Source: a virus
Taxonomy: Duplodnaviria > Heunggongvirae > Uroviricota > Caudoviricetes
Virus record (IMG/VR): IMGVR_UViG_2923302340_000009
Coordinates: 1 to 54,993 of that record
DNA length: 54,993 bases
Strand: one strand, 5' to 3'
The position numbers were made by a program, and so were the translations under genes. Shown here in pieces: positions 23,981-54,993 of the stretch. How positions within the stretch are numbered: position 1 is the stretch's first letter; the number at the start of each line of letters is the position of its first letter. The notes beneath the pieces are model-generated. The model searched no databases, had not been told where the DNA came from, and saw only the letters and a program-made list of their open reading frames with translations.

Positions 23981-23993
23981 GAATATCAGCAAG

Positions 23994-24275: not shown

Positions 24276-24286
24276 AGCGTACTACG

Positions 24287-24829: not shown

Positions 24830-24940
24830 CAATATCCCCACTTAAGTAATGTTTCAGGTTGGTGTATTGACTTTATCTTTTCCTTTTTATTCATAGAGAT
24901 AGAGCGAACAACAAAACCACCACCAGCACCCGAAAAAGGC

Positions 24941-25010: not shown

Positions 25011-25030
25011 CAGAGCGGGCCCTAATTTCA

Positions 25031-25414: not shown

Positions 25415-25425
25415 TGTATCCCCCT

Positions 25426-25767
25426 TTACACACGAGCCAGCGGCTGAACAGAAATACCTGAGCCAACAAACGCTGCAACCTTTACTGACAGTTCTTTAAC
25501 AGACTCAGGCCAGTTCAGAGCATCAACATTTAAGACACCTGTCTTATAGACCTGAGCCTGTGTTTTTTTCGCGGTGTCGATTTGTACAGCGGAAACATAA
25601 ACCGCTTTACCTACGCTCGAACCATCCCATACCACCAGTGCACCTGTTGCATCTTCCTGCATCAGTGGCGTAAATGCAGGAATTACCCCTTTATTAGCTG
25701 AAAATATCCCCAGCGTAGTCACCAGTGCTTCAGTGCCAGCCATGAGTTCAGTGTAATGAGTAGCCAT
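25426..25767 (-). CDS. head decoration protein, lambda gpD-like (island paralogue)
   Basis: 113 aa alignable to lambda gpD (PAFTPLM...VWDGSS...); SD AGGGGGAG. Confidence 0.75.
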   Translation of the reverse strand: MATHYTELMAGTEALVTTLGIFSANKGVIPAFTPLMQEDATGALVVWDGSSVGKAVYVSAVQIDTAKKTQAQVYKTGVLNVDALNWPESVKELSVKVAAFVGSGISVQPLARV

Positions 25768-25776
25768 TGCTCCCCC

Positions 25777-26823
25777 TTAGCCAATGCGAACGGTAACAAA
25801 ACGATTGATGCGGGCCGGTATTGGCTGTGGTGCTGAATGTGTCTGCACATATTCAATAGCCGGATCACCAGGCACAATATAGTTTTTCGGTGCAAGTTCG
25901 GCTTTAGTCAGCCCCATTCGGATTAGCTCCGGATCCTGAATACCGCCATAGGCGACAATCCCCTGAAGAGCCGTATTGCCAAGCACCATCAAATCAGGAT
26001 CAAGGAAATGTTTTTCTGTTCCGTCCTCGTCGGTATAACGCCCGCTGTAAACAACAATCGCAACATCGCCCATATACCCTTTAAAACTCACCGAATCACC
26101 AAGGTCTTTAAGGGCCGTTTCCAGTTCGGAATTAGAACCACGACGGGTATCCAAAGCCTCTTTTATCGCTCTGAATGAACGGTATTTCTTCCATACATTA
26201 CCACCCATAATGATGATATTAGTGACGCCCTCACTAAATTCTGCGTAGCTCTCAATATCATCATTTGGATCAAAAGTTTCTTTATCCTTACCTGACCACT
26301 CAGTACCGCCAGACTGAGTGATGATATTTTGTGGTTTTATATTCCAGTCCAGCTCATAACGTTCAATACCATCGCCCTCAATGATATTTTTCCCCGTTGT
26401 GATTGCCTGAACAGCAAGCCATTCAATACGTGCACGAATAGCTTTAGCCTGATTTACAATCGCCTGTTTAACTTTAATATTACGCGCCCCAAAAGCATTG
26501 TATTGCTCAGGTGACACACCAGCAGGGCGCACAGCTAACTTATTTGGATCAATGCTGCTTTTCGGCTTCATATAACCTGGACGAATTGTTTTTGATTCGT
26601 ATCCCTCATCTCGTGAAACTTTACTGCCCACCATAGGAGAGCAAAACGCCGCGATCGGGATATTTGGATCGTCGATCGTATCAAGAATAATGTCTCTCGA
26701 TTCAAACATTACCGAGCGAGTGAAAAACAAACTGGTAAACAACGCATTTAATTTTTTTTGCACATCTTCAGCATTAGCCACCTGCACAAGCTGTGTAGGC
26801 GAATATAAATCAACCATACTCAT
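25777..26823 (-). CDS. major capsid protein, lambda gpE-like (island paralogue)
   Basis: Roughly half identity to lambda gpE by eye across C-terminal two-thirds (QSGGTEW...LDTRRGSNSELETA...VAIVVYSG); start at MSMVDLYS with SD AAGAGGA. Confidence 0.8.
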   Translation of the reverse strand: MSMVDLYSPTQLVQVANAEDVQKKLNALFTSLFFTRSVMFESRDIILDTIDDPNIPIAAFCSPMVGSKVSRDEGYESKTIRPGYMKPKSSIDPNKLAVRPAGVSPEQYNAFGARNIKVKQAIVNQAKAIRARIEWLAVQAITTGKNIIEGDGIERYELDWNIKPQNIITQSGGTEWSGKDKETFDPNDDIESYAEFSEGVTNIIIMGGNVWKKYRSFRAIKEALDTRRGSNSELETALKDLGDSVSFKGYMGDVAIVVYSGRYTDEDGTEKHFLDPDLMVLGNTALQGIVAYGGIQDPELIRMGLTKAELAPKNYIVPGDPAIEYVQTHSAPQPIPARINRFVTVRIG

Positions 26824-26988
26824 CCTCTTTACATTCATTACAAATAATTGTGAATATATTCTATTACCGATGTCTGCTATGCGAACACATGCAACCAAGT
26901 GCAATGTTGTATAAAATATGCCGTAACAACTTCAGTGCTGATAATTCGTGTTAATGTATTTACTTCCTTTGGTCGGGATTTATGTAGC

Positions 26989-27028
26989 ATGCCGGAAAAT
27001 CTATTTTTTTCCGGCATCTTTTTGTTTG
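26989..27028 (+). terminator. plus-strand hairpin with T-tract between island ssb and capsid genes
   Basis: atgccggaaa / tttccggcat 10-bp stem followed by ctttttgtttg on plus strand; both neighbouring genes are on minus strand. Confidence 0.35.
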
Positions 27029-27034
27029 CAGAAT

Positions 27035-27457
27035 TTAAAACGGTATATTATCGCCGTACGGATCATCATTCCCCGACTGTTGTTTTGCCCTGTTCAGTGC
27101 GTCAGTGGCCTGCCCCTGCTGGCCTTTTTTGCCGCCCGGTCGCGCCGTTCGCGCACTGATTACGCTGTCTGCGATAACCTGCCAGCCCCGCCGCGTTTCG
27201 CCGTTCTGGCCTGTCCACTGGCTTACCTGCATGTTACCCGCCACGCTCACCAGTTCGCCTTTGTGGTGTTTTGCCAGTGCGTCGGCCTGTCTGCCAAACG
27301 CCAGGACGGATAACCACATCGTCGCCGTTCCGTCATCTGCCTGGCTGCACGGCAGGGGAACCGCCATACTCGCCATCGCCATTTGTGTCCCTTTGCTGGT
27401 GGTCTTTAACTGCGGGTCAGCCACCAGCCGCCCGTAAGCCGCTATCTGTGCTGTCAT
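27035..27457 (-). CDS. ssb: single-stranded DNA-binding protein (SSB-like)
   Basis: 140 aa with Gly/Gln-rich linker and acidic C-terminal tail DDPYGDNIPF typical of SSB. Confidence 0.75.
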   Translation of the reverse strand: MTAQIAAYGRLVADPQLKTTSKGTQMAMASMAVPLPCSQADDGTATMWLSVLAFGRQADALAKHHKGELVSVAGNMQVSQWTGQNGETRRGWQVIADSVISARTARPGGKKGQQGQATDALNRAKQQSGNDDPYGDNIPF

Positions 27458-27768
27458 GCTGTCTGCTCTCCGGTTTTAACATTGATGGTTGTCACCTGTT
27501 CCGCTTCGGCAATCTCCCGTTCTGTCAGCGTGGCAAAGTTTGCCGCTGCTGTGGTCATAAATGCGCTTATCAGGTCGGGATGTTCCTTCGCGTATCCTGC
27601 CCGTGTGTGGTGGTCTATCGCTTTGATTGCCACCTTTAAGGAAAGCTCTGTCATGTCTAACGCTTTATATTTTGCCTGTGTTCTGTCTCTGCGAATTTTG
27701 GTCATTTGTCGCCCCTGATTCATGTTTTCGGCTGGCATGTTTGTTAAGTGATTTTTATGTATGCGCAT
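27454..27768 (-). CDS. hypothetical protein translationally coupled to ssb
   Basis: 104-aa ORF; stop overlaps ssb ATG (ATGA). Confidence 0.45.
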   Translation of the reverse strand: MRIHKNHLTNMPAENMNQGRQMTKIRRDRTQAKYKALDMTELSLKVAIKAIDHHTRAGYAKEHPDLISAFMTTAAANFATLTEREIAEAEQVTTINVKTGEQTA

Positions 27769-27819
27769 TTATTTTCACCCCCCCTCGTTTAAAAAGTTTT
27801 TAGTTGTGCCTCCCCCCCT

Positions 27820-28045
27820 CTACCCATCTACCCGAATGCTCATCATGTCAGTAATGGCGCCGCTTTCAGCGGGTAGATAGCTTTTTTGACTCCTCTACCT
27901 GCCGTCTACCCTGCTACCTGAAACTGATAAAATCAGGTAGAAGAGGTAGAGAGCTTTTATTAGCCTTCTACCTAGCCCTATATCCACTTATCATGTTGAA
28001 TAATATGCATTTATTTCGTTCAGGTAGATGGGGTAGATGGCTTTT
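27820..28045. repeat. iteron cluster (GGTAGA / TCTACC motifs, about 12 copies in both orientations); putative island replication origin
   Basis: ctctaccc, atctaccc, gggtagat, aggtagaagaggtagag, ggtagatggggtagatgg immediately upstream of primase gene. Confidence 0.7.
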
Positions 28046-28053
28046 ACAAAAAA

Positions 28054-29808
28054 TTATAAAAACGCGTCGCAATCGTCTGTTGTAATTGCGTTGGTCTGCG
28101 TTACTCCCTTAACTTTTCGCGTAATATATTCATGCCCGTAAACTTTCGCCGCTGGCTTCATGGCCTTGCTGAACTCAGCCACGTTTAGCGGTTTGCTCCT
28201 GCCCGCGTATGCCATAAACGCCAGATAGACGCGGTAAAGGCTGTTCCTGGTCGTGTACTTCACTGAATCACCACCGCCACCCATCATCAGGCCGCGCGCT
28301 TCCTCCAGAAAATTCAGGAACTGGCAAAACTCAATAACCGGATCCGTCTGTTGCTTTATTGCCAGTGCTTCATCACCGTCACGCTGTTCCAGTAGTAAAG
28401 CCCGTGCCTTCTCAGGGTCGGTAAAGTTCGCCAGCAATCGGCGGATAATAACGGGGATTTCAGCCGCAATCTTTTCCGGTAGCTCCCTGTCTTTTTCGGC
28501 CTCACTGACGATATTGTCGAAACGGAAAATCACGCGACGACGTGCCACACCTCCGGCCCGTTCGGTGAATATCATCGGGTTGTTGTTGGTCGCCAGCACC
28601 ACCGCCCTGATTACCGCCGTGAAACGCTTTTCATATTTCGGGTTAATTTCCACGGGGTCGCCGCCTGTGATTTTCTTGATGCCCGTTCCTTCGCCTGTAT
28701 ATTTCGGCTGGTCAGCCAGGACGATAAGACGACTCCCGACAACCTGCGCACGTCCACCAGCATCATCAAGCGATGTCATTTCAGCGCTTACCGTGTTCTG
28801 TTTCCCTGCCAGAAGGCTGGCTATGTGTGTGAATGTACTTTTACCGCTCCCGCCGTCTCCGGTGGCCTCAATAAACATCTGCCAGTCGTACCGGTTCGCC
28901 ATAATCATGTACAGCGCGGCACATATACGCATCATCTTGCGCGGGTCTTTTCCGGCTGCGTGCTCAAGCCATTTATGAAAGTTTGGCGCGTTATCGCGGA
29001 TGTTCTCCCCTGGTGCTGGTGGCGTGTACTCAATGCCGTTGTGCGTGGTGATCCAGTTCTCCGGCGTGTGCGGGGAAAATTCCCCCGTTTTCAGGTCAAG
29101 CGCACCATTGGCGAACGGCAGCAAATCGCCAGACGGCTCGCCCATTGGTTCGGCAATAACTTTTAACGCTTCCACGGCGTTATTGATTACGCGCTTGCTG
29201 AAAGTGGCCCTGTGCTCTGAATAGATCGCCACCATTTCGCGGCTAAGTTCCATTGTGCTGACCGGACACCATACCCCGCCGCGCCATACGTGAACGATTT
29301 CACTTTCAGGATGTACGCAAACGCCATCAAAGCGATCGGCAAGCAACTGCGCGCGCTCACTGTCCGCCATCTGCGAAAGTTGCGCCTTTTGCTTTACCGG
29401 AAGCTCAATGACCAGACCATCAGAAAGATTCTGGCGTTCACGGGCCAGATATTCGCGCCAGGTCTGCACCTCCTGGCCGTGCATACCCTCAGGATAAAAA
29501 TTTGCATCCTGTACGCCTGCTGCCGCCAGCTTCTGACCAATCGCCTTTATCATTACAGGCGCAAGATATCCGGCCCTGTATATGCGTGCTGATTTTCGGC
29601 CTTCCGGCACAATTTGCAGATTATCCAGTTCGGATAGCTGCTGCTCCCCAAGCCACACAGGAGGCTCATTATCTCCGGCCATACGCGCATCATGTTCCTG
29701 CCATTGTTTCGCGTGTGCCCAGGCATCACTACCCGCAAAAATAATTACTTCTGTTCCTTTGTGTTTTATGCCGCGTGACTGCTGTTTTACGTTCGGTGCC
29801 AGTTTCAT
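28054..29808 (-). CDS. primase-helicase (P4 alpha-like replication protein with P-loop NTPase domain)
   Basis: 584 aa; Walker A GDGGSGKST; adjacent iterons; translationally coupled to upstream ORF. Confidence 0.75.
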   Translation of the reverse strand: MKLAPNVKQQSRGIKHKGTEVIIFAGSDAWAHAKQWQEHDARMAGDNEPPVWLGEQQLSELDNLQIVPEGRKSARIYRAGYLAPVMIKAIGQKLAAAGVQDANFYPEGMHGQEVQTWREYLARERQNLSDGLVIELPVKQKAQLSQMADSERAQLLADRFDGVCVHPESEIVHVWRGGVWCPVSTMELSREMVAIYSEHRATFSKRVINNAVEALKVIAEPMGEPSGDLLPFANGALDLKTGEFSPHTPENWITTHNGIEYTPPAPGENIRDNAPNFHKWLEHAAGKDPRKMMRICAALYMIMANRYDWQMFIEATGDGGSGKSTFTHIASLLAGKQNTVSAEMTSLDDAGGRAQVVGSRLIVLADQPKYTGEGTGIKKITGGDPVEINPKYEKRFTAVIRAVVLATNNNPMIFTERAGGVARRRVIFRFDNIVSEAEKDRELPEKIAAEIPVIIRRLLANFTDPEKARALLLEQRDGDEALAIKQQTDPVIEFCQFLNFLEEARGLMMGGGGDSVKYTTRNSLYRVYLAFMAYAGRSKPLNVAEFSKAMKPAAKVYGHEYITRKVKGVTQTNAITTDDCDAFL

Positions 29809-30104
29809 TTTTTACCTCTGAATCCGTTAATCATGGTTTTCATTTTCTGGATATTTCCCCACGCTTTTTCCCTGCTGATGGGCTTACTGCGGGGTGCGGC
29901 ATATACCAGGGAAAAATCACGCCGGAACTGATAAACAGGCATCACGCAGTCATAGCTATACCCCTCACGGCGGTAAGTGATGCGCCGTTCTGCCACGCCT
30001 TTAATCGTTACCGTGCCGCCGTATTTATCGCGGTAAATATCGCCGTTCATAAATTCAGGTCGAGCGGGGCCGCTGGCAATAAAGCCAGAATTTTTCATTT
30101 CCAT
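29805..30104 (-). CDS. hypothetical protein
   Basis: 99-aa ORF whose stop overlaps primase start. Confidence 0.45.
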   Translation of the reverse strand: MEMKNSGFIASGPARPEFMNGDIYRDKYGGTVTIKGVAERRITYRREGYSYDCVMPVYQFRRDFSLVYAAPRSKPISREKAWGNIQKMKTMINGFRGKK

Positions 30105-30121
30105 ATTATTTATTCCTCGAC

Positions 30122-30343
30122 TTAACTCGACTTATTTGATAGCAGGGCACTATTTATTGCGTCATTGAGTTTTTCTGCTGATTCATCAATAAGTGACAAC
30201 AGGCCATAAGCAATATTTGCATCTTCATTGTCATTTATGCAATCAAGCCACATATTTAATATTGCTTTTGCTGAATTATTTAAAGTTAATGAACTTTCTG
30301 CACATGCTAACAATTTAAAAAAGACTTCCCGTTCTGTATTCAT
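30122..30343 (-). CDS. hypothetical small protein
   Basis: 73-aa ORF in tightly packed three-gene array. Confidence 0.4.
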   Translation of the reverse strand: MNTEREVFFKLLACAESSLTLNNSAKAILNMWLDCINDNEDANIAYGLLSLIDESAEKLNDAINSALLSNKSS

Positions 30344-30535
30344 TTAATCCCCCACCAGCTTACTTTCTTCCTCAATCAAAAAACTAGCGACACTTCCCGA
30401 AAGACGCGCCAGTAGGCTCGCCAGTGCGGATATATCAGCATCTGTAATTTTGTTCGGGTATACCTCAAGAAGGCGGCAAATAATTTCTGTCTGGTGCGCA
30501 CGTTCAGCGGCTTCGTGTAATGTAATTTCCTGCAT
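30344..30535 (-). CDS. hypothetical small protein
   Basis: 63-aa ORF abutting neighbours. Confidence 0.4.
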   Translation of the reverse strand: MQEITLHEAAERAHQTEIICRLLEVYPNKITDADISALASLLARLSGSVASFLIEEESKLVGD

Positions 30536-30720
30536 TAATGCACCTCTTTTAATTCATACACTGCTGAAATAATGACTTGTGATAAGCCATATTCTGATGA
30601 TTCGCTTCTCACCGCAGCAATAGCCGTCTGAACATTAACAGCCTTCACATTCTGAGCGATACCAATTGTGTGGCCTATTGGGTTAACAGCTCGGGCAAAT
30701 ACACGGAAGGTTTTAAGCAT
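30535..30720 (-). CDS. hypothetical small protein
   Basis: 61-aa ORF with SD GGGAG; first gene of minus-strand array. Confidence 0.4.
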   Translation of the reverse strand: MLKTFRVFARAVNPIGHTIGIAQNVKAVNVQTAIAAVRSESSEYGLSQVIISAVYELKEVH

Positions 30721-31001
30721 GACTCACTCCCTGGCGGATTTTTGCAGCGAATACAGCAACACAACCGGACGGGCAACGGCTACGCGCTTCGCGTTCCGTC
30801 CAGGCGGTTACGTGGATGATTTGAGATTCTCCGGCACTCAGTGCCAGAAAACGCCACACAAAGGCCGTTTGTGTGTGTACAAGGTGTGGTATATGATTTA
30901 CAGCAACCATAACGGCTCCTAGTTTACGTTGTTGGTTAGACGCCCCGTATGTGTTCCCAGCACTGCGGGGCGTTGCTCTTTGTATTTCAACAATCCTTTC
31001 G

Positions 31002-31034
31002 GTGTGTTTCATGTTATGAGCGCATGAAACACAC
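31002..31034. promoter_or_regulatory. 12-bp perfect inverted repeat (gtgtgtttcatg N9 catgaaacacac) in divergent intergenic region; putative operator
   Basis: Lies between minus-strand small-gene array and plus-strand gene at 31101; half-site gaaacacac recurs at about 31071. Confidence 0.5.
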
Positions 31035-31100
31035 GTCAAGGCTTTTTGTATTTCTTTTTTTGTGTATACTGAAACACACCGATGATTAGGAGTTTCAGAA

Positions 31101-31406
31101 ATGGCAACGGCTAACAAAAACGCAAAATCACAACTGACAACTGTCAGAGTCCCACTAGATGTTATGCAAGGGATGGAATCCGTTAAGCTGGACGGTGAAA
31201 GCAATGCCGGATTTATCGTAACCGCCATGCGCGGAGAAATAGCCCGCCGCCAAGCAGAAGGCAGCGGAGAAAATCCCCTTGTGTCGTCACTGGATGCCCT
31301 GGCTAAGGTCGAACAAATCGGCATCAAAGCAGCCGAGGAGATCGGGCAACTCGTCACCGTCGCGCGTGAAGAACTCCAGCGACGCAAGGTCAAAGAGCAT
31401 GAATAG
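31101..31406 (+). CDS. hypothetical protein, candidate island regulator
   Basis: 101-aa ORF with SD AGGAG; divergent from small-gene array; downstream of operator-like repeats. Confidence 0.5.
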   Translation: MATANKNAKSQLTTVRVPLDVMQGMESVKLDGESNAGFIVTAMRGEIARRQAEGSGENPLVSSLDALAKVEQIGIKAAEEIGQLVTVAREELQRRKVKEHE

Positions 31407-31463
31407 CCAATATCAGCGCCATAGTTTGAGGAACGCAGGCGCATTGCTTTACAGGACAGCACC

Positions 31464-31643
31464 ATGAGCGACACAGAATCAACCAAAACACCATCACCAA
31501 CTCGTAAGAGACGACGCAAAAATATAGCGCATGAACATGAATCAGAAAGATTCGCACCTTGTTCGTTTGCTCTTGAGAAATTCCTTAAAGAGCACAGGAA
31601 AAAGCTCTCGTTGCAAACCTTGGAACGAACCAAATCTGACTGA
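31464..31643 (+). CDS. hypothetical small basic protein
   Basis: 59-aa ORF (not in track, below 60 aa) MSDTESTKTPSPTRKRRRKN...; followed by terminator. Confidence 0.3.
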   Translation: MSDTESTKTPSPTRKRRRKNIAHEHESERFAPCSFALEKFLKEHRKKLSLQTLERTKSD

Positions 31644-31709
31644 TCACATTGCCCACCAGCCGCAAATGTGGCATTGTTGGTGATGCTTTTGTTTTCCCTT
31701 GTTCCCACT

Positions 31710-31740
31710 GGCGACCCTTTTGCGGTCGCCTTTGTTTTGT
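31710..31740 (+). terminator. rho-independent terminator for plus-strand island genes
   Basis: ggcgacc-cttttgc-ggtcgcc hairpin followed by TTTGTTTTGT. Confidence 0.55.
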
Positions 31741-32318
31741 CACTGAATGCGGTTACCAAAGTAAAACTCAGGCTGATATTCACGTATCAGCGTTTTTTCT
31801 TCTTCCTCCAGCTCACGCTTTTTGCGCTTACATGCCTGTAGCTCCCTCCCCTTCTCGCTGGCACTTATTTGATATTGCTCTTTACGGCGGGAAAAATCCT
31901 GTAATGCACCCCACGGGATACCATAAGTCCCCGTTTTTCTGATACCTGGTATCACATTTCTGAATACCCAGTTACTGAAACGATGAGCAAATGTGCCAGG
32001 CGTCGTTGCTTTGCGGCTGCGGGCTATTAGTTTGTAGAAACCTGACTCAGAGATAATTCTCATATTCTGATTTCCTCCTGGGGTGTAAGTTAAATTTACT
32101 CCCTTTTCATCATCATCAAGCATCTGCAACGCCGTACGCGAATTGGTTAGTTCCAGCGCAGCACAAACATCTTTTGCAACAAACCACGGATCGCCGTTCA
32201 GATACACCACACGAACGTTCACACTATCAAAGCGCAGAACGACGAGATCACGAATATCGCAGAATTTTTTCACTGGACGAGCGTACCCCTTGCCCGTCAC
32301 GGCAATATTTTTATTCAT
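31740..32318 (-). CDS. BRO-N domain protein (antirepressor-like)
   Basis: N-terminal VVLRFDSVNVRVVYLNGDPWFVAKDVCAALEL resembles Bro-N/KilA-N family. Confidence 0.65.
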   Translation of the reverse strand: MNKNIAVTGKGYARPVKKFCDIRDLVVLRFDSVNVRVVYLNGDPWFVAKDVCAALELTNSRTALQMLDDDEKGVNLTYTPGGNQNMRIISESGFYKLIARSRKATTPGTFAHRFSNWVFRNVIPGIRKTGTYGIPWGALQDFSRRKEQYQISASEKGRELQACKRKKRELEEEEKTLIREYQPEFYFGNRIQ

Positions 32319-32334
32319 CGCGTTTTTACCTTAT

Positions 32335-32361
32335 AGACAAAAAACCCCTCGTGATGAGGGG
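32335..32361 (-). terminator. rho-independent terminator downstream of alpA
   Basis: On minus strand cccctcatcacgagggg followed by TTTTTTGTC. Confidence 0.55.
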
Positions 32362-32374
32362 CATTATTTACTGG

Positions 32375-32632
32375 TTATTGCTGTTTTGTTTTTCCAGGTT
32401 TCCATCCAGGATGCCACTCACCACGGATCCATGCCTGAACCTCTGAAAGTCGATACCCTGCAGCACGTTCACCGATCTTGATACGTCGCGGGAATTTACC
32501 TGCCTGCTCCATTTTCCAGCGTGTTGAGTTTGCCAGCGTGGTAAGTGCTATGCACTCTTTTTCACGAATGAACCGATCAATGTCCTTCATTGTGCGCAAA
32601 TCGTTTTCATCAACAAGAGAATAAATTGCCAT
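32375..32632 (-). CDS. alpA: AlpA-family transcriptional regulator/excisionase-like protein
   Basis: 85 aa; ...FPRRIKIGERAAGYRLSEVQAWI motif; immediately downstream of integrase. Confidence 0.75.
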   Translation of the reverse strand: MAIYSLVDENDLRTMKDIDRFIREKECIALTTLANSTRWKMEQAGKFPRRIKIGERAAGYRLSEVQAWIRGEWHPGWKPGKTKQQ

Positions 32633-32633
32633 A

Positions 32634-33875
32634 TCACACCACCTCTTTATTAAGCTCGATAACGTTGTTGTTAAATCCTGCTATCGTATTAAGGTAATTA
32701 ACCCACATATTAAGCACCTCAAGTTTTTTCTTTATATGCCTGCTTTTATTGTAAACACCAGCAACCCCTTTCACTTTATGACCTAAAAGAAGTTCGACAA
32801 TATAAGGATCCGCCCCCATATCATTAAGCGTAGTGGAAAATGTGCGCCTGAAATCATGTATGCACCACAAGCCATTAGTATCATGACCAAGACGCCTGCA
32901 TATTCTGTTTGCAGCCCCTGTTATTGTCGCCCTTTGCAAAGCACAACCGACAACATAACCGCGATTTTTTGTTTCTGCGTAAAGATTAACGATCCATTGT
33001 TTTATTCCGTCAGGAACAGGCCTTACTATAGCCTCCTTGTTTTTGCTGTGCTCTTTTGGGACTGTCCATACCCAGTTTTTTAAATCCCATTCGTCCCAGG
33101 TGGATAGCCTCGCCTCCTGCTGTCGGCAACCAAACACCAGGCAGATAACCATTATTCTTCGGTTATATATTGATGACAGAGTTAGCAAATTATTACCGTA
33201 AGCATAAGACCATACATCAGCGGTTTCATTGATATTAAGAACGCGATCCCTTATACCGGATGAGCGCCCGACATAACTTACGTTAATATCTCCAAAGGGA
33301 TCGCACGCGATGTATTGCCTGACGCGACAAAAACGCAACGCCTGTTTGATATCAAGAAAAATTGCACCAGACATAACAGGCGCATTTTTTTTGATCCTGT
33401 CAAAGACGGTAAGCCATGTGTGTAATTTGCACTGTTCTATAGCCATATCACCGATATAGGGGAAGATATGCTTTTCAAATCGTTTTATTAAATATTCATG
33501 CTCTTTTCTGGCTGTTGTGGCGTGATTGTCGTACCAGTAAAACAGCGCATCCCTTACGGTCACTGGTTGCATAGTTTTTTCGGCAGCAAGTTTTATTTGC
33601 CTGCGGGGGTCCAGATTTTCAGCCAGCCATTCACGGCACTGATCACGCATGCGCCTGGCCGTTGCAAGAGACATGTCAGGATAGCGACCAAGTGTAAGCC
33701 ATACCGGAGGGAATTCCCTGCCACCAAGACGATAGTAAAAAACAAAGCTGATCCCCCCAACCATGCTTACACGCACAGACAACCCGCGCCCATCCGCTAT
33801 TGTTTTTTGTTTGTCCTGCCGTTTTCCGACAAGACTCTTTAACAGTTTGTCACTGAGTTTGTTTTCAATAGCCAT
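32634..33875 (-). CDS. int: P4-type tyrosine integrase
   Basis: 413 aa; P4-like N-terminal arm-binding region and C-terminal HDFRRTF...LLGH...Y catalytic region; adjacent to island end. Confidence 0.85.
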   Translation of the reverse strand: MAIENKLSDKLLKSLVGKRQDKQKTIADGRGLSVRVSMVGGISFVFYYRLGGREFPPVWLTLGRYPDMSLATARRMRDQCREWLAENLDPRRQIKLAAEKTMQPVTVRDALFYWYDNHATTARKEHEYLIKRFEKHIFPYIGDMAIEQCKLHTWLTVFDRIKKNAPVMSGAIFLDIKQALRFCRVRQYIACDPFGDINVSYVGRSSGIRDRVLNINETADVWSYAYGNNLLTLSSIYNRRIMVICLVFGCRQQEARLSTWDEWDLKNWVWTVPKEHSKNKEAIVRPVPDGIKQWIVNLYAETKNRGYVVGCALQRATITGAANRICRRLGHDTNGLWCIHDFRRTFSTTLNDMGADPYIVELLLGHKVKGVAGVYNKSRHIKKKLEVLNMWVNYLNTIAGFNNNVIELNKEVV

Positions 33876-33893
33876 TAAAAGCCCTCAAGAGAT

Positions 33894-33947
33894 TTGCAAT
33901 ACACACCCATCCCGATCGCCAATTTGCAATACACATTGCAATACACA
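33894..33947. repeat. three direct copies of TTGCAATACACA next to integrase start (putative arm-type binding sites)
   Basis: Copies at about 33894, 33924, 33936; same motif at left island end. Confidence 0.55.
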
Positions 33948-34023
33948 AAACCGCGAAAAACTGGAAGGGTGATGAACGGTCATCAAAAGCATGGAAAACG
34001 ACATTCCAGACGCAGCAAGGGTT

Positions 34024-37004
<2,981 letters not shown>

Positions 37005-40025: not shown

Positions 40026-40829
40026 ATGACAGAAAAAGATAACATTGGTAAGTTAATTTGGCATATTGCTTGCGATGAATCTGGCATTGATGGGCAACGT
40101 TTCTACGGCTTTGGCAGTCTGTGGATGAAGTACCAACGCCGTGGGGATTTCTGTCAACTAATCAGAGAACTACGCAGCAAACATGGTTTTTTTGAAGAAA
40201 TAAAATGGCAAAAAGCCCATTCAAAAAGATACTCTGAATTTTATCTTGAGCTGATCGACTTATTCTTTAGAGTTCCTTGGCTAGCTTTTCATTGTATCGT
40301 GGTTGAAAAATCAATAGTAAACAAGGCATTTCATAATGGGGATTATGACCTGGCAAGGAGAAAGCACTTCACAAATCTCATTACCACAAAAATTAGCTCT
40401 GTAATTTCTGCACACCCTGAAAGAGACAGTTACTTCAGGATTGAAGTTGATCCTATCGCATCTCGTTATAAAAAGGCCGATGAAGAACTAAATGTTATTG
40501 CCAATAACATATTGAATAGAAAATTTGGTCGTAAAGGGATAATCAGCAGTGTAGTGACAAAAGACTCTAAAGCATCTGAAAACATTCAGCTAGCCGATTT
40601 TTTCTTAGGTGCGGTTATGTGCGCATATCAAGGAAAAGCTTCATCTGAAGCCAAAATAAGAGTATCAAACTATGTTGCTTCATATTTAGGCTGGGATCAT
40701 TTGCAATATGATACATGGCACACTGAGAGAAAATTTAATATCTGGTATTTTTATGATAAAACTCGAGGGCCACGAGATATAGAAACTCAAAATGTTAGCT
40801 TAAAGTATCCACTTCCCCAAAAGAAATAG
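40026..40829 (+). CDS. DUF3800-like protein (moron between Q and lysis genes, opposite strand)
   Basis: N-terminal DESG motif (IACDESGIDG) and C-terminal QLAD motif (IQLADFFLGAV) characteristic of DUF3800 as I recall it. Confidence 0.6.
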   Translation: MTEKDNIGKLIWHIACDESGIDGQRFYGFGSLWMKYQRRGDFCQLIRELRSKHGFFEEIKWQKAHSKRYSEFYLELIDLFFRVPWLAFHCIVVEKSIVNKAFHNGDYDLARRKHFTNLITTKISSVISAHPERDSYFRIEVDPIASRYKKADEELNVIANNILNRKFGRKGIISSVVTKDSKASENIQLADFFLGAVMCAYQGKASSEAKIRVSNYVASYLGWDHLQYDTWHTERKFNIWYFYDKTRGPRDIETQNVSLKYPLPQKK

Positions 40830-43328: not shown

Positions 43329-44639
43329 CTATGGATTAGAGAGTGAATCTGGATGTGGTATTTCAGCCATGACCTCCTCTGCATCACAGTTGTCGATAAA
43401 AAAGTATAAAGTTGAGTCAACAATTTTTAAACGCCTGGTACCTTGATCATAATCGAATAATGGCGGAACGATATTCTGATTTGTTTGAAGTATAGGCAAT
43501 CGCTTCAGTGTCCCTGTTACATCAGAAGTTCTGACGTTATCAGGATGAGTATGTATTTCTTTAATAAGTTCCTGTAGAGTCTTTCTCTCAATCCCATCCT
43601 TGAGCTCAGAATAAGTTCTACTTAACAGAACTTGAACTAAATAATACTGAAGATACAAAGCCACAGCCTCTTCACTTGGCCTGCGACTTCGACTCCCTGC
43701 GGCAATTGACTCAAGACTACGGACATGTCTTGACGAATAATCTGCAACCTTAACGTCAATTGCTCTTTGTAGAACGGCCATATCACTCAAATAAACTACT
43801 TCTTGTTGGACCATTCGTATTCCTGACAATTCACAAAGTTGCTTAAGAAGCTCTTGCACTACTGCAACACTTCCATGGGCCTCTTCAAATATACGCTCTT
43901 TAATTTGCTCTGAAATAGATATATTTAAACACTGCTCGCCAACTGTAGCGATTCTTGAAAAGTCACCTTTATCCCATGGCTCAACAGGAACCTCAGCCAT
44001 ACGGTCCTGTAAGTCGCCATTAAACTGAATAAGACGATTATTTTCTCTCCATACTCCGAGTATGATAAATCTAATACCCATTTCTTCAAATGTACGAAGA
44101 TCAAATGCCAACTGTCCTTGAACTTCAACAGAGAGATAATGAAAGTTTTCGAGAACGAAGAACTTATCCTTCCCGCCAACATTAATCAATAATTCTCCTA
44201 CATCTTGTGCCGCCGTCAAGTTGAACTCAATCGGCCTAGATTTTGTTTCTGTATTTTTGGATATCGTCCCTTCAACCCCCGCCTCTACTTCAGTTTTTGC
44301 TAAAAATGGCAGGATGGCAGAAAAAGTGCTTTTTAAAGACGCTGAAGCCTCCTTAGAGTTACCTGTTGTTCTCTCGGTAATAATTTCCACTCCAAAGTGA
44401 CGTAAAAATGTACGATAGATATCTTCCGCAGAATTGGTGGGACCACAATGATATGTAACCCTGCTGTTTTCATCTAAATGGCGCTGAAGTAAGGCTGTTT
44501 TCCCTTGTTTTGATGAGCCATAAATCACGATCTGCTTCGTCGTTGCAAGTGCATCAGCAAGTGCCTGATCGACCTTTTCACGTTCAATATAGCTGGCTAC
44601 CGGATCTCTTGATACTCCGAATACATTATTTAGATGCAT
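43329..44639 (-). CDS. P-loop NTPase (AAA-like ATPase) of unknown function; nin-region moron
   Basis: Walker A GSSKQGKT, Walker B-like FFVLENF; AT-rich gene flanked by AT-rich DNA. Confidence 0.6.
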   Translation of the reverse strand: MHLNNVFGVSRDPVASYIEREKVDQALADALATTKQIVIYGSSKQGKTALLQRHLDENSRVTYHCGPTNSAEDIYRTFLRHFGVEIITERTTGNSKEASASLKSTFSAILPFLAKTEVEAGVEGTISKNTETKSRPIEFNLTAAQDVGELLINVGGKDKFFVLENFHYLSVEVQGQLAFDLRTFEEMGIRFIILGVWRENNRLIQFNGDLQDRMAEVPVEPWDKGDFSRIATVGEQCLNISISEQIKERIFEEAHGSVAVVQELLKQLCELSGIRMVQQEVVYLSDMAVLQRAIDVKVADYSSRHVRSLESIAAGSRSRRPSEEAVALYLQYYLVQVLLSRTYSELKDGIERKTLQELIKEIHTHPDNVRTSDVTGTLKRLPILQTNQNIVPPLFDYDQGTRRLKIVDSTLYFFIDNCDAEEVMAEIPHPDSLSNP

Positions 44640-45028: not shown

Positions 45029-45361
45029 TTAATGTAGTGCACTTCGTGACAACAAATTAATCACCAACACACCGGCACAAATCAACATCATGCCTATAAT
45101 GGCTGGCAGGTCCAGCCGTTGGCCGAAAAATCCCCATGACAGTAAGCTAATCAGGACAATCCCGACTCCTGACCAGATAGCATAAGCAATCCCTGTAGGA
45201 ATATAAGCCAGCGTCTGAGCTAATAACCAGAATGATGCACAGTAACAAATAATTGTACCAACAGATGGCCATAACCGTGTAAAACCTTCTGAAAACTTCA
45301 TTAAGGTTGTACCAATGACCTCTGCAAGTATTGCACCACCAAGATAAATATAAGGGTTCAT
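45029..45361 (-). CDS. emrE: small multidrug resistance efflux protein EmrE
   Basis: 110 aa from MNPYIYLGGAILAEVIGTT; near-identical to E. coli EmrE. Confidence 0.92.
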   Translation of the reverse strand: MNPYIYLGGAILAEVIGTTLMKFSEGFTRLWPSVGTIICYCASFWLLAQTLAYIPTGIAYAIWSGVGIVLISLLSWGFFGQRLDLPAIIGMMLICAGVLVINLLSRSALH

Positions 45362-49075: not shown

Positions 49076-49195
49076 TACCAATTAAAAATTATCAACTGGG
49101 CATTGTGCTCATTCAGTAAAGAACTAATTCCTATCTTTGCTCTAGGTAGTAATATTAAGCCACCGCAATAATATCTTTACCTAACGGCGTAAGAA

Positions 49196-49222
49196 TCCCG
49201 GTCACCGTGCCGGGTTTTCTTT
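49196..49222 (+). terminator. rho-independent terminator downstream of cI-like gene
   Basis: cccgg-tcaccgtg-ccggg hairpin followed by TTTTCTTTT. Confidence 0.5.
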
Positions 49223-49364
49223 TGCCCTCCCCTCATCACACACACCGTTAAAAAAACCACCATAACCTCGCTTCAGTTATCGCTATGCGATTCAAGTCAC
49301 AAAATAAATCCATCCTAAATACAACCAGTTATATCTAAAACAACCAATAAAACAACTTTTGTTG

Positions 49365-49393
49365 TTGACGATAAAACAACCATGGTTTTAAAT
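49365..49393 (+). promoter_or_regulatory. pL-like promoter with operator palindrome in spacer
   Basis: -35 TTGACG, 17-nt spacer containing aaccatggtt, -10 TTAAAT; further AACAACCA half-site upstream. Confidence 0.5.
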
Positions 49394-49586
49394 AAGTTCA
49401 TCGCAACAACACAACGATACGGCAACTACCTGATTCACCGTTGCGATGACCGCTTAGATCCGCAGTTTGAATTTCAGCAGGCTTCGGGGAGTGCGAGGGG
49501 TGAAACGGACGCGTGAACGTCGGTGTGACCAGCTGAAATTAACTCAACATTTCATACCTTAGTCGCTTCAACGAGGCGGCTTAGTT

Positions 49587-49877
49587 ATGACAACCGGCGG
49601 CCATCCACCGCCTGAATACGCGCAGAAGTCTCTATATGTTCAGCAGCCCAGCTTACGGGCAGGAGTTTTTATGGTTCATCAACATTATGGAACGCAGACC
49701 GTTAATCGAGGTGCGGTCATGCCAGGAATGCTGGTCAAACACAAAGATGGTACCTGGACTGCATCAGCTAATTTACGCGGACGGCTTTATCTGCATCGCG
49801 GCATCGAGCGCACTTATACCCGTGATTTGCTCGTGGAAGTTTTTCTCGACGGACGCGGTAACGGCCTGAATCACTAA
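49587..49877 (+). CDS. hypothetical protein occupying the N/early-left position
   Basis: 96-aa ORF, SD-like GAGGCGG; not Arg-rich N-like; lambda homology resumes just after its stop. Confidence 0.45.
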
Positions 49878-50254: not shown

Positions 50255-51040
50255 ATGAGTACAGCACTCGCAACGCTGGCAGGGAAGCTGGCTGAACGTG
50301 TCGGCATGGATTCTGTCGACCCACAGGAACTGATCACCACTCTTCGCCAGACGGCATTTAAAGGTGATGCCAGCGATGCGCAGTTCATCGCATTGTTGAT
50401 CGTCGCCAACCAGTACGGCCTTAATCCGTGGACGAAAGAAATTTACGCCTTCCCTGATAAGCAGAACGGCATCGTTCCGGTGGTGGGCGTTGATGGCTGG
50501 TCCCGCATCATCAATGAAAACCAGCAGTTTGATGGCATGGACTTTGAGCAGGACAATGAATCCTGTACATGCCGGATTTACCGCAAGGACCGTAATCATC
50601 CGATCTGCGTTACCGAATGGATGGATGAATGCCGCCGCGAACCATTCAAAACTCGCGAAGGCAGAGAAATCACGGGGCCGTGGCAGTCGCATCCCAAACG
50701 GATGTTACGGCATAAAGCCATGATTCAGTGTGCCCGTCTCGCCTTCGGATTTGCTGGTATCTATGACAAGGATGAAGCCGAGCGCATTGTCGAAAATACC
50801 GCATACACTGCAGAACGTCAGCCGGAACGCGACATCACTCCGGTTAACGATGAAACCATGCAGGAGATTAACACTCTGCTGATCGCCCTGGATAAAACAT
50901 GGGATGACGACTTATTGCCGCTCTGTTCCCAGATATTTCGCCGCGACATTCGCGCATCGTCAGAACTGACACAGGCCGAAGCAGTGAAAGCTCTTGGATT
51001 CCTGAAACAGAAAGCCACTGAGCAGAAGGTGGCAGCATGA
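50255..51040 (+). CDS. bet: Bet (Red beta single-strand annealing protein)
   Basis: 261 aa, essentially identical to lambda Bet. Confidence 0.97.
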
Positions 51041-51717
51041 CACCGGACATTATCCTGCAGCGTACCGGGATCGACGTGAGAGCTGTCGAACAGGGGGATG
51101 ATGCGTGGCACAAATTACGGCTCGGCGTCATCACCGCTTCAGAAGTTCACAACGTGATAGCAAAGCCCCGCTCAGGAAAGAAGTGGCCTGACATGAAAAT
51201 GTCCTACTTCCACACCCTGCTGGCTGAGGTTTGCACCGGTGTGACTCCGGAAGTTAATGCTAAGGCGCTGGCCTGGGGAAAACAGTACGAGAACGACGCC
51301 AGAACTCTGTTTGAATTCACTTCCGGCGTGAATGTTACTGAATCCCCGATCATCTATCGCGACGAAAGTATGCGCACCGCCTGCTCTCCCGATGGTTTAT
51401 GCAGTGACGGCAATGGCCTTGAGCTGAAATGCCCGTTTACCTCCCGGGATTTCATGAAGTTCCGGCTCGGTGGTTTCGAGGCCATAAAGTCGGCTTACAT
51501 GGCCCAGGTGCAGTACAGCATGTGGGTGACACGAAAAGATGCCTGGTACTTTGCCAACTATGACCCGCGTATGAAGCGTGAAGGACTGCATTATGTCGTG
51601 GTTGAGCGGGATGAAAAGTACATGGCGAGTTTTGACGAGATGGTGCCGGAGTTCATCGAAAAAATGGACGAGGCACTGGCTGAAATTGGTTTTGTATTTG
51701 GGGAGCAATGGCGATGA
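51037..51717 (+). CDS. exo: Exo (lambda exonuclease)
   Basis: 226 aa, essentially identical to lambda Exo. Confidence 0.97.
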
Positions 51718-51869
51718 CGCATCCTCACGATAATATCCGGGTAGGCGCGATCACTTTCGTCTACTCCATTACAAAGCGAGGCTGGGTATTTCCCGGCCTT
51801 TCTGTTATCAGAAATCCACTGAAAGCACAGCGGCTGGCTGAGAAGATAAATAATAAACAGGAGGATATA
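51714..51869 (+). CDS. small ORF downstream of exo (lambda orf60a-like N-terminus)
   Basis: 51-aa [31 protein letters not shown]...; ATG overlaps exo stop. Confidence 0.45.
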
Positions 51870-52933
51870 TGAGTCAGGTTGGTAATCATTCATTCGAATT
51901 TCCGGCATCGCAAGGTGTACAGGGTGGTACTGTTACACTCTTCCTTACCATACCAGGAAGATCGCTGGCTCGTTTCCTCGCTTCAGATAATTACGGCCAT
52001 ACACTGGAACGCTCTCAGCGAGAAATTAATCCAAATCGAGTACGAAAATTTTTAAATTATCTCACTAACGCAGACTCAAGAAATGAGCCTTTTATCATTC
52101 CCCCTCTCGTAGGTAACTGTGATTCGAATATAGAATTTGTACCGTTTGGCAACACAAATGTTGGTATAGCCAGAATTCCCCTCGACGCCGAAATAAAACT
52201 TTTTGATGGTCAACATCGTGCAGCTGGCATTGAGATATTTTGCCGAAGCTCCCCATCAACGCTCATGGTTCCCATGATGCTTACAATGAATCTGCCGCTA
52301 AAAACCCGGCAGCAGTTCTTTTCGGACATAAATAACAACGTTTCTAAGCCATCAGCGACCATCAATATGGCGTATAACGGCCGGGATGATATTGCTCAGG
52401 GAATGATATCCTTCCTGACCCAACATACTGTATTTGCCGATATAACCGATTTTGAACACAACGTAGTGCCATTAAAAAGTAATATGTGGGTGAGTTTCAA
52501 GGCACTCACTGATGCAACGTCAAAGTTCGCTAGGAACGGCAATCAACAACTTGAAATGGGATATATAGAATCTGTCTGGGAGGCATGGATTACACTAACT
52601 CAGATTGACTCAATTCGACATGGTGTACACCACGCTACGTACAAGCGCGATTATATTCAGTTCCATGGAGTAATGATTAACGCTTTCGGTTTTGCGGTTC
52701 AACAGATGATGGTTAATCATTCCATCGCAGAAATAACTTCTATGATCGAAAAACTATGTGCAACTACCAGCTCTGCAGAAAGAGAGGATTTTTTTCTGAT
52801 GGATAACTGGGCGGGGATCTGCACGAAAGCCAGCCAGGAAAAACTATCTGTTATTGCCAATGTGGCAGCGCAGAAAGCAGCAGCAAACAGACTGATACAA
52901 GCTTTTACCAAAGGAAGTCTGGAAACAACTTAA
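51869..52933 (+). CDS. DGQHR-domain protein (DndB-like), stand-alone
   Basis: Exact DGQHR motif (KLFDGQHRAAGIE); 354 aa; SD AGGAGGA; between exo and xis. Confidence 0.65.
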   Translation: MSQVGNHSFEFPASQGVQGGTVTLFLTIPGRSLARFLASDNYGHTLERSQREINPNRVRKFLNYLTNADSRNEPFIIPPLVGNCDSNIEFVPFGNTNVGIARIPLDAEIKLFDGQHRAAGIEIFCRSSPSTLMVPMMLTMNLPLKTRQQFFSDINNNVSKPSATINMAYNGRDDIAQGMISFLTQHTVFADITDFEHNVVPLKSNMWVSFKALTDATSKFARNGNQQLEMGYIESVWEAWITLTQIDSIRHGVHHATYKRDYIQFHGVMINAFGFAVQQMMVNHSIAEITSMIEKLCATTSSAEREDFFLMDNWAGICTKASQEKLSVIANVAAQKAAANRLIQAFTKGSLETT

Positions 52934-53086
52934 TGAATCAACATTGTCTCATATCAGCATGCTGTACGGCGTCTTTAAGGAACGGTGAGCATGAAAAACA
53001 AAATCATCATGGAGCTACAGGCTCCTTTTTTATTATTCGCATTCACCCTCAAGCGTATTAACCAACAATTCAGGGATTAATGAAAG

Positions 53087-53305
53087 ATGGCAGACATCAT
53101 TGATTCAGCATCAGAAATCGAAGAATTACAGCGCAATACAGCAATAAAAATGCGTCGTCTGAACTACCAGACTGTATCCGCAACTCATTGTTGTGAGTGT
53201 GGCGATCCGATAGATGAGCGAAGACGCCTGGCTGTTCAGGGTTGTCGGACTTGTGCTAGTTGCCAGGAGGAGATCGAACTTAAGAACAAACAATGGGGAC
53301 TGTGA
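53087..53305 (+). CDS. TraR/DksA-family C4 zinc-finger protein
   Basis: 72 aa with CxxC...CxxC (CECGDPIDERRRLAVQGCRTCASC). Confidence 0.7.
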   Translation: MADIIDSASEIEELQRNTAIKMRRLNYQTVSATHCCECGDPIDERRRLAVQGCRTCASCQEEIELKNKQWGL

Positions 53306-53352
53306 TGGCCTCAAAGCAGCAAATTTCAACATCGTCCAACTGAGGTGTAAAA

Positions 53353-53631
53353 ATGTTCAGAATCATTTTTCCTAACACCTGGTACGTCGACCACCACGGC
53401 ACTCCCTGCAAAATCCTGCGTTCTACCCACAACAAAGTTCACTACATCCGAAAAGGCAGAACATGTATCGCCAGCATGTTCCGCTTTAATCATGACTTTG
53501 AACCTGTGAATAAAGCTGATGCAGATCGGATAGCAGAAGAGATCGAAACGGCAGAACACATTAAGAAGTTACGTGACATGCGTTCAAAAAGCAGAGGTAA
53601 CCATGGAATCATACAGCCTCACACTCGATGA
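53353..53631 (+). CDS. hypothetical protein
   Basis: 92-aa ORF upstream of xis; no family recognised. Confidence 0.4.
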   Translation: MFRIIFPNTWYVDHHGTPCKILRSTHNKVHYIRKGRTCIASMFRFNHDFEPVNKADADRIAEEIETAEHIKKLRDMRSKSRGNHGIIQPHTR

Positions 53632-53974
53632 GGCCTGTCAGTTTCTTAAGATATCCAGACCAACCGCCACCAACTGGATACGAACAGGCCGCCTACAGGC
53701 AACACGTAAAGATCCAACCAAGCCAAAATCTCCTTACCTCACAACACGGCAAGCCTGCATTGCGGCGCTTCAGTCTCCGCTGCATACTGTCCAGGTGAGC
53801 GCGGGTGATGGCATAACAGAGGAAAGAAAATGTCACTCTTCCGCAGAAATGAAATATGGTATGCCTCGTATTCGCTCCCGGGCGGGAAACGAATTAAGGA
53901 ATCTCTTGGCACAAAGGACAAGCGGCAAGCTCAGGAGTTGCACGACAAGCGAAAAGCAGAACTCTGGCGTGTAG
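53603..53974 (+). CDS. xis: excisionase-like HTH protein
   Basis: [34 protein letters not shown]; SD GAGGT; C-terminal part overlaps int by about 145 nt, so 3' extent uncertain. Confidence 0.55.
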
Positions 53975-54993
53975 AAAAGCTAGGGGATTTACCTGATGTC
54001 ACTTTTGAAGAGGCCTGCCTAAGATGGCTTGAGGAAAAAGCTGATAAAAAATCTCTCGATTCAGATAAAAGCCGGATTGAGTTCTGGCTTGAACATTTTG
54101 AGGGTATAAGGCTTAAAGATATCTCGGAGGCAAAGATTTACTCTGCTGTAAGCAGAATGCATAACAGAAAGACGAAAGAAATATGGAAACAGAAAGTTCA
54201 GGCCGCTATCAGGAAAGGTAAAGAACCGCCTGTTTATGAACCAAAGCCAGTATCAACTCAGACAAAGGCAAAGCATCTTGCCATGATAAAGGCCATTCTC
54301 CGTGCTGCAGAACGCGACTGGAAGTGGCTGGAAAAAGCGCCTGTCATCAAGATACCAGCGGTCAGAAACAAGCGAGTCAGATGGCTGGAAAAGGAGGAAG
54401 CAAAACGCCTTATTGATGAGTGCCCCGAACCACTGAAATCTGTCGTCAAGTTTGCGCTGGCAACTGGTCTGAGAAAGTCGAACATCATAAATCTGGAATG
54501 GCAACAAATCGACATGCAGCGACGAGTTGCCTGGGTGAATCCAGAAGAGAGCAAATCAAACCGCGCCATTGGTGTGGCGCTGAACGATACCGCCTGTAAA
54601 GTGTTGCGTGATCAAATAGGCAAGCATCACAAATGGGTGTTTGTACATACCAAGGCGGCTAAGCGAGCAGATGGAACATCAACGCCTGCGGTCAGGAAGA
54701 TGCGCATCGACAGCAAGACATCATGGCTATCAGCTTGTCGTCGTGCAGGAATTGAAGATTTCCGTTTCCATGACCTCAGACACACCTGGGCAAGCTGGCT
54801 GATTCAGTCAGGCGTCCCATTATCAGTGCTTCAGGAAATGGGCGGATGGGAGTCCATAGAAATGGTTCGTAGGTATGCTCACCTTGCGCCTAATCATTTG
54901 ACAGAGCATGCGAGGAAAATAGACGACATTTTTGGTGATAATGTCCCAAATATGTCCCACTCTGGAATTATGGAGGATATAAAGAAGGCGTAA
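53830..54993 (+). CDS. int: phage tyrosine integrase (DLP12 IntD-like)
   Basis: 387 aa; C-terminal catalytic motifs HDLRHTWAS...GGWES...MVRRYAHL; resembles E. coli DLP12 IntD; stop at window end. Confidence 0.9.

Follow-up and report, generated by a model that had tools for sequence, protein, structure and literature searches.

A stand-alone DGQHR-domain protein of the DndB superfamily in an Escherichia coli lambdoid prophage and its relatives on phages and conjugative plasmids

Background

DndB is the autoregulatory repressor of the dndBCDE operon (PMC4507180) and is described as ATP-modulated in a report cited in PMC10164549 (Xia et al. 2019). The DGQHR domain is defined by three motifs, namely a QR pair, DGQHR itself and FxxxN (PMC4619093). 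Here we analyse the gene for a stand-alone DGQHR protein of the DndB superfamily. The gene is located at 51869..52933 on the + strand of a 54,993-nt stretch of DNA from a virus of the Caudoviricetes (IMG/VR record IMGVR_UViG_2923302340_000009, positions 1 to 54,993), referred to below as the window; it starts with ATG and encodes 354 amino acid residues (aa).

Outside the dnd operons, DpdB is a ParB-like ATPase needed for the modification of DNA by DpdA, with which it forms no stable complex (PMC10164549). Binding of ATP and GTP has been described for a DndB-like protein from bacteria, and prophages are enriched in fusions of ParB with methyltransferases (bioRxiv 10.1101/2025.10.10.680097). 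The gene in the window is already present in RefSeq and PHROGs (PHROG 7901), and DGQHR proteins outside dnd operons are a recognised category. The supplement of a survey of plasmid leading regions lists a single 'DGQHR' family with 7 members. Our literature search found no study of stand-alone phage or plasmid DGQHR proteins. New in the present analysis are the link between the prophage copy and a widespread relative in plasmid leading regions, and the recurrent linkage of the family with DNA-modifying enzymes. We tentatively favour a role of the protein in the establishment of the element that carries it.

Affiliation with the DGQHR/DndB superfamily

The gene product is identical to the RefSeq protein WP_000084449.1, annotated as 'DGQHR domain-containing protein'. 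It matched the Pfam family DndB (PF14072; E 3.8e-46, 158.2 bits, cutoff 29.1), the NCBIfam DGQHR domain (TIGR03187; E 1.5e-55, 188.8 bits, cutoff 58.85), the PADLOC model of DndB (E 4.3e-37) and, over its full length, PHROG 7901 (E 7e-216), which is filed under 'unknown function'. Since the scores lie far above the cutoffs, membership in the DGQHR/DndB superfamily is confirmed, as a sequence-only reading of the window had predicted from the exact DGQHR signature in this open reading frame (ORF).

The signature appears as F-D-G-Q-H-R at residues 112-117 (nt 52202-52219), the pentapeptide D113-R117 occupying 52205..52219 (+). In an alignment of 22 diverse members, comprising phage, plasmid and genuine DndB proteins, D113, G114, H116 and R117 are invariant and Q115 nearly so. 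The QR pair corresponds to Q50-R51 (52016..52021, +) within an invariant RSQRE; in the alignment of 22 members R51 was invariant and Q50 almost so, and a second alignment showed the pair without variation. The FxxxN motif reads F151-S-D-I-N155 (52319..52333, +), with F151, D153 and N155 invariant across phage, plasmid and true DndB proteins. Among relatives of 52-73% identity about 100 columns are invariant, all motifs included, which indicates purifying selection on the family.

Aligned by hhalign with a profile of 11 genuine DndBs, a profile of the window protein matched along residues 5-323 in 309 columns, with 21% identity, a probability of 99.9% and an E of 7e-35. An alignment of this extent identifies it as a full-length paralogue of DndB rather than a protein that merely shares the N-terminal domain. 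It is, on profile evidence, not DndB proper: against the DndB equivalog model TIGR03233 it scored 106.9 bits with a cutoff of 328, and ten control DndBs scored 396-499. Our own partition with hidden Markov models (HMMs) placed the window protein together with the relatives from Salmonella phage SPN1S and from the plasmid sources IncL/M (Orf25), pECL_B and p40-95A in one compact enterobacterial subfamily, which mobile elements carry in place of dnd operons. The 46 genuine DndBs in the comparison fell outside it, as did 77 DGQHR proteins of neither group.

Two kinds of regulator could be derived from this homology. The first is a displaced regulator whose dnd or ssp cluster lies at another site in the host chromosome, which the homology to DndB and the existence of dnd clusters in E. 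coli would allow. A RefSeq annotation applicable to the whole 55-kb window (see below) holds no dnd, ssp or methyltransferase gene, which extends the earlier remark that adjacent dnd and ssp genes are missing; the window gene thus does not head a dndBCDE operon. For comparison, a genuine dndBCDE locus was recovered from E. coli; its dndB is chromosomal, lies inside the operon and encodes a protein only 21% identical to ours. DNA of dndC-dndD from this locus matched 207 of 5426 complete E. coli genomes, in all cases on the chromosome. The DGQHR gene occurs in 284 of the same 5426 genomes and is hence commoner than dndCD, so that at least 77 carriers are without dnd; among the matches listed, none of 30 carriers falls within 60 dnd genomes. 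Together with the DndB equivalog cutoff, missed by more than 200 bits, and the travel of the gene with phages and plasmids of many genera, these counts make the displaced regulator extremely unlikely at the level of the population.

The second is a regulator in its own right, in the manner of DndB, HerB or KorB, whose nucleotide-modulated binding would repress or reprogram specific phage or host promoters early, perhaps acting on the lysis-lysogeny decision or on host physiology and unrelated to modification. The closest characterised homologue, DndB, is a repressor, the homology spans both domains, and stand-alone copies would find a natural explanation. HerB (YfjB), a ParB-like protein of plasmid leading regions, moreover binds the chromosome and reprograms host transcription (PMC13370423). 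Cys29 of DndB, reported to be important for DNA binding, is replaced by Ile28 in the window protein, which speaks against either kind of regulator, although the position varies among true DndBs too. The DndB operator TACGN10CGTA likewise had no match in the window, with 0.26 expected by chance, an absence of little weight, since a paralogue could use a different site.

Domain architecture

The N-terminal domain (about residues 8-170; 51890..52378, +) has the ParB/sulfiredoxin fold of nucleoside triphosphate (NTP)-binding domains and is NTPase-like. Canonical ParB proteins, by comparison, combine an N-terminal domain containing GERRxRA with a helix-turn-helix (HTH) and a ParA partner; the window protein had only a marginal match to a ParB-like PHROG (E 0.011), has no HTH and is accompanied by no parA gene. 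The C-terminal domain (residues 175-354; 52391..52930, +) is helical and aligns with the C-terminal half of DndB. Modelled separately, it was predicted with confidence (predicted local distance difference test, pLDDT, 89; predicted template modelling score, pTM, 0.88). Compared with solved structures, the model gave no meaningful match and none to a nuclease-like fold, and searches of the PDB by sequence and by Foldseek returned nothing.

ParB/sulfiredoxin-fold NTPase domains serve as sensor modules of SspE, BrxU/GmrSD and DndI (PMC4619093), and the protein could accordingly be pictured as a defence gene protecting the lysogen, or as a sensor of modified DNA, that acts through superinfection exclusion or abortive infection. 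In its favour, the exo-xis region is a variable cargo site, and a terminator-like hairpin stands 3' of the gene (see below). An effector domain was found by neither Pfam nor PADLOC: the Pfam scan showed no DUF262, DUF1524/HNH or other nuclease, PADLOC likewise showed no nuclease and matched DndB only, with no single-gene system, and the C-terminal domain is without a structural match. The gene has no promoter-like site of its own and is translationally coupled to the early operon, and its relatives reside in leading regions and in early regions of the virulent cycle, which fits offence or establishment better. The sensor and defence roles put forward in the sequence-only reading are therefore unsupported by the present evidence, and we regard them as improbable.

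A hidden His-Me/HNH nuclease was considered as well, with 'FEHNVVP' on a beta-beta-alpha element as the candidate site. It was rejected, since H197 gives way to R or K in true DndBs as well as in many relatives. Longer relatives of 430-660 aa contained no additional domains detectable by Pfam.

Relatives in phages and on plasmids

The gene is present at ≥99% identity in the 284 E. coli genomes mentioned above; of these copies, 282 span 80% or more of the query. Relatives of 62-65% identity occur in the group of Salmonella phage SPN1S and in phages of Klebsiella, at the same place after the recombination genes and a DUF1317-like ORF; Vibrio and Pseudoalteromonas phages carry relatives of 31-33% identity. 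In all of 54 diverged IMG/VR loci the DGQHR gene lies on the same strand as the recombination module and 3' of it. The family is modest in size: a library of 1.8 billion proteins clustered at 50% yielded 586 clusters at E ≤1e-3 and just 42 at ≤1e-30.

A tblastn search of PLSDB found relatives of 38-42% identity on 1071 plasmids, of which 885 are conjugative and 565 stem from Klebsiella. Representative loci are LC602695.1 (L166), NC_014108.1 (L167) and NC_019336.1 (L168). On plasmids of incompatibility group L/M (IncL/M) the gene, orf25, stands in the order radC-like, korC, orf25, ccgA1, DUF4942 ... klcA ... ssb, with all genes co-oriented towards nikA and the relaxase. Taking the position of the origin of transfer from nikA and the relaxase, this array fits the layout of a plasmid leading region, a region enriched in anti-defence genes and orphan methyltransferases (PMC11541004). 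The position of orf25 directly after the repressor gene korC would also suit the regulator described above. In a transposon sequencing (Tn-seq) study of pOXA-48 the gene is labelled 'Orf25, DndB superfamily', with no function given (PMC12365149).

Neighbouring DNA-modifying enzymes

When the loci were grouped into 39 lineages (clusters at 95% identity), by our own count about 13-15 of them encode a methyltransferase within 3 kb downstream of the DGQHR gene, whose start and the stop of the ORF before it frequently share 4 nt. The enzymes belong to five unrelated families: MT-A70, phage Dam (PF05869), N6_N4, D12 Dam and C5. In Vibrio phage Va_PF430-3_p42 a DGQHR protein of 539 aa is followed by a C5 methyltransferase and then by the integrase.

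Two loci combine the gene with 3'-phosphoadenosine-5'-phosphosulfate (PAPS) reductases. On p40-95A, a conjugative Salmonella plasmid, a 626-aa protein with a PAPS-reductase domain is encoded directly 3' of the DGQHR gene (L168, 8111-9991). In Pseudoalteromonas phage KB12-38 the DGQHR gene lies amid two PAPS reductases, an adenylation-type ligase and a C5 methylase (L005, 1-7553). Both arrays are candidate DNA-modification modules.

A protein of 154 aa, without a match in Pfam and rich in Cys at its C-terminus (HCDIC...CCPACC), was also observed, encoded 2 nt past the DGQHR gene (L065, 7065-7529) and found in 15 other IMG/VR loci. The stop of its gene overlaps the start of the next methyltransferase gene, and it may be a third member of the module.

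Local gene order and expression

The genes on the + strand of the window run in the order cI-like S24 repressor, kil, gam, bet, exo, DUF1317, DGQHR, TraR/DksA zinc finger, DUF4222, HTH_17 excisionase remnant (a pseudogene) and int, and from kil to the DGQHR gene the run is uninterrupted. The lambda-type exo is located at 51037..51717 (+), with bet, gam and kil 5' of it on the same strand. It is followed by an ORF of 54 aa (51708..51872, +) that resembles DUF1317 and lambda orf60a and corresponds to positions 1-49 of the 60-position Pfam model, in agreement with the truncated lambda-like small ORF noticed earlier. The supposed fusion of this ORF to the DGQHR gene did not hold. Instead, its stop overlaps the DGQHR start by 4 nt (ATGA, 51869-51872) and an AGGAGG Shine-Dalgarno sequence (51859..51864, +) lies 4 nt 5' of the ATG, so that the two ORFs are translationally coupled, not fused. 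ORFs of 50-55 aa overlapping the DGQHR start by 4 nt recur in the diverged loci, and a similar ORF precedes the gene in SPN1S.

A scan for sigma-70-like promoters on the + strand upstream of the DGQHR gene found none. With no promoter-like site upstream and a start coupled to the preceding ORF, the arrangement points to co-expression with the early-left recombination genes rather than to expression in the lysogen; the timing rests on synteny, as no promoter was found by the scan. Between the cI-like repressor and kil (49076-49670) neither an N-like antiterminator gene nor a consensus promoter was found, only a terminator-like hairpin at 49197-49214. A further terminator-like hairpin with a T-run (53011..53035, +) begins 78 nt past the DGQHR stop; such sites numbered 3 in the region, with 3.1 expected, and are thus not above chance.

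The recombination genes have a GC content of about 0.52; over ~51800-53400 it is lower, at 0.42-0.44, and the drop starts at the point where DUF1317 is truncated. This is consistent with an imported module acquired by recombination within orf60a. Downstream follow the genes for a TraR/DksA-type zinc finger (53087..53305, +; Pfam zf-dskA_traR and RefSeq annotation) and for DUF4222 (53353..53631, +; Pfam and RefSeq), and the xis pseudogene at ~53603-53668. The gene does lie between exo and xis, as had been stated, with these two further genes before xis. The flanking genes in the 54 IMG/VR loci vary widely, and the exo-xis region of related loci holds very different cargo, which supports the earlier idea of a hotspot at this site. 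The label of a moron in the strict sense does not suit a gene with no promoter-like site of its own and a start coupled to the ORF upstream.

The prophage carrying the gene

The entire window is 100% identical to positions 4003305-4058297 of the chromosome of E. coli CFSAN018748 (NZ_CP028192.1), and the RefSeq annotation of that record is therefore directly applicable. It represents a lambdoid prophage integrated at tRNA-Arg (argU), and the integrase gene intD (53830..54993, +) forms the prophage end beside argU in the identical record. An interrupted portal gene, an IS66 element and the xis pseudogene suggest that the prophage is probably defective. The portal gene is split into two fragments (22405-23178 and 34024-34905, - strand) by an insert of ~10.8 kb (23179-34023). 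The insert has its own integrase, an HTH regulator, BRO-N, an Icd-like gene, primase, SSB, major capsid, head-decoration and small terminase genes, a set that resembles a capsid-forming phage satellite, similar to phage-inducible chromosomal islands (PICI-like), inside a potential helper. The IS66-family element ISCro1 (tnpA, tnpB, transposase) occupies 16554-19169, where it separates the FI gene from the head-tail joining gene.

Other cargo of the prophage includes an unannotated hypothetical protein of 436 aa (43329-44639, -) beside ybcN in the nin region, a DUF3800 gene (40026-40829, +) between Q and the holin gene, and emrE (45029-45361, -).

From the state of this prophage one might conclude that the DGQHR gene is a passenger of no current function, kept through the recent spread of a defective element, and the ≥99% identity of all 284 E. 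coli copies does suggest recent spread. A mere passenger would sit poorly with the span of at least 80% of the query in 282 of these copies, with the ~100 invariant columns that include every motif at 52-73% identity, and with the persistence of the family in functional phages such as SPN1S and on 885 conjugative plasmids. We see only a slim chance for this explanation.

Proposed role

In our tentative best reading, the DGQHR protein acts as an establishment factor: it would support DNA modification or determine its timing, or in some other way shield the DNA of its element from restriction, and in the window it would do so with no encoded partner. The DGQHR pocket would bind and hydrolyse NTP (ATP or GTP), as in DndB and DpdB, and the nucleotide cycle would switch the association of the protein with DNA; the precedents of DndB, DpdB and the bacterial DndB-like protein lead us to infer such a switch. 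The protein would be made early, alongside the recombination genes, once the element becomes active in a cell. This timing is suggested by a gene order shared with the lambda early-left operon and by the placement in plasmid leading regions, where the relatives would likewise be positioned for expression soon after entry. Acting in trans on DNA, the protein may then aid the establishment of the element. With a partner (methyltransferase or PAPS reductase) encoded next door, it would most likely support or time modification, and otherwise protect against host restriction; the copy in the window prophage would have to work without an encoded partner. The anti-defence function that the sequence-only reading had listed among its options is plausible from this context (early operon, leading-region relatives, frequent methyltransferase neighbours), which falls short of proof.

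Several observations weigh against the establishment factor. Two thirds of the lineages, including the clade of the window gene, have no adjacent modification enzyme, and a methyltransferase is absent from the annotation of the whole 55-kb window. The association with methyltransferases is no more than suggestive and could reflect a common home in accessory regions. The promoter scan did not locate the early-left promoter, and no parS-like or operator site and no conserved repeat or palindrome above chance was found near the DGQHR gene. In pOXA-48, orf25 is split by the insertion sequence IS1, and in Tn-seq in E. coli K-12 both halves were non-essential for maintenance and transfer (PMC12365149). 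IS1 likewise interrupts one of the prophage copies in E. coli (NZ_CP148275.1, H24). In the window itself the prophage is probably defective, and the gene may be idle here.

The main rival to the establishment factor is the DndB-, HerB- or KorB-style regulator. It too would lack a conserved repeat or palindrome near the gene, and it leaves the recurrent tight linkage with methyltransferases and PAPS reductases unexplained. Considering also the homology and the korC neighbourhood in its favour, we hold this alternative to be doubtful, yet the most serious of those examined.

A wider proposal is that the mobile-element DGQHR proteins, that is PHROG 7901 in early-left regions, IncL/M Orf25 and the leading-region relatives on hundreds of resistance plasmids, make up a hitherto unrecognised class of proteins for early establishment or anti-defence. 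They would be NTP-gated DNA clamps of the ParB fold that load on incoming DNA and there either keep restriction away from it or recruit or potentiate any DNA-modifying enzyme at hand, be it a PAPS reductase, a phage methyltransferase or perhaps Dam or Dcm of the host. In this general form we consider the proposal unlikely. Should the role proposed for the protein hold, one family would connect temperate phages with conjugative resistance plasmids, among them the IncL/M plasmids that spread OXA-48, and thereby two routes by which foreign DNA enters Enterobacterales; it could reveal a new way by which mobile elements survive host restriction, and could show a reuse of ParB-fold nucleotide switches beyond chromosome segregation. 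If the protein does no more than regulate, or is carried idly, the outcome would be the ordinary annotation of a known domain family. The family is easily tested, being represented by non-essential, stand-alone genes in cultivable phages (SPN1S) and on model plasmids (pCTX-M3).

Comparison with known systems

DndB (DptB; TIGR03233; PMC4507180) and the window protein consist of the same two domains, with ~310 homologous residues, a similar length (~360 and 354 aa) and the QR, DGQHR and FxxxN motifs in common; presumably they also share the NTP-switched association with DNA. They differ in sequence (20-24% identity) and in the C-terminal motif, IDWxRxN..WxGR in DndB versus ERExFF...WxGxC in the window protein, and the window gene is carried by phages and plasmids outside any dnd operon. 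The closest counterparts on plasmids, Orf25 of IncL/M (pCTX-M3, pOXA-48) and the proteins of pECL_B and p40-95A, belong to the same subfamily (39-42% identity), likewise stand alone on a mobile element and, as the window gene does, sit in a co-directional array of early or accessory genes. They are plasmid- rather than phage-borne, and the one from IncL/M is longer by a C-terminal tail of ~70 aa.

The GmrS/DUF262 modules of SspE, BrxU and DndI carry a DUF1524/HNH nuclease with the motifs (D/E)HxxP, N and N, whereas the window protein has none. HerB (YfjB) of F-type plasmids (PMC13370423) would resemble the window protein as an orphan, NTP-binding and DNA-associated ParB-fold protein made soon after entry of the element. 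As a ParB that binds CTP, has an HTH and dimerises through a distinct module, it stands apart from the DGQHR type. The ParB-methyltransferase fusions of prophages (bioRxiv 10.1101/2025.10.10.680097) similarly tie a ParB-fold NTP module to an orphan methyltransferase. In the DGQHR family the two are separate genes, adjacent in about one third of the lineages, the N-terminal domain is of the DGQHR type, and the copy in the window is without a methyltransferase. DpdB (PMC10164549) differs in its DGQQR motif (DUF262-like), against DGQHR here, and in its gene neighbourhood, since dpdA and dpdC adjoin the DpdB gene and the window has no tRNA-guanine transglycosylase (TGT) or DUF328 gene. With its ParB/sulfiredoxin N-terminal domain and helical C-terminal domain, DpdB may nonetheless serve as the model for a protein that enables a separate modifying enzyme.

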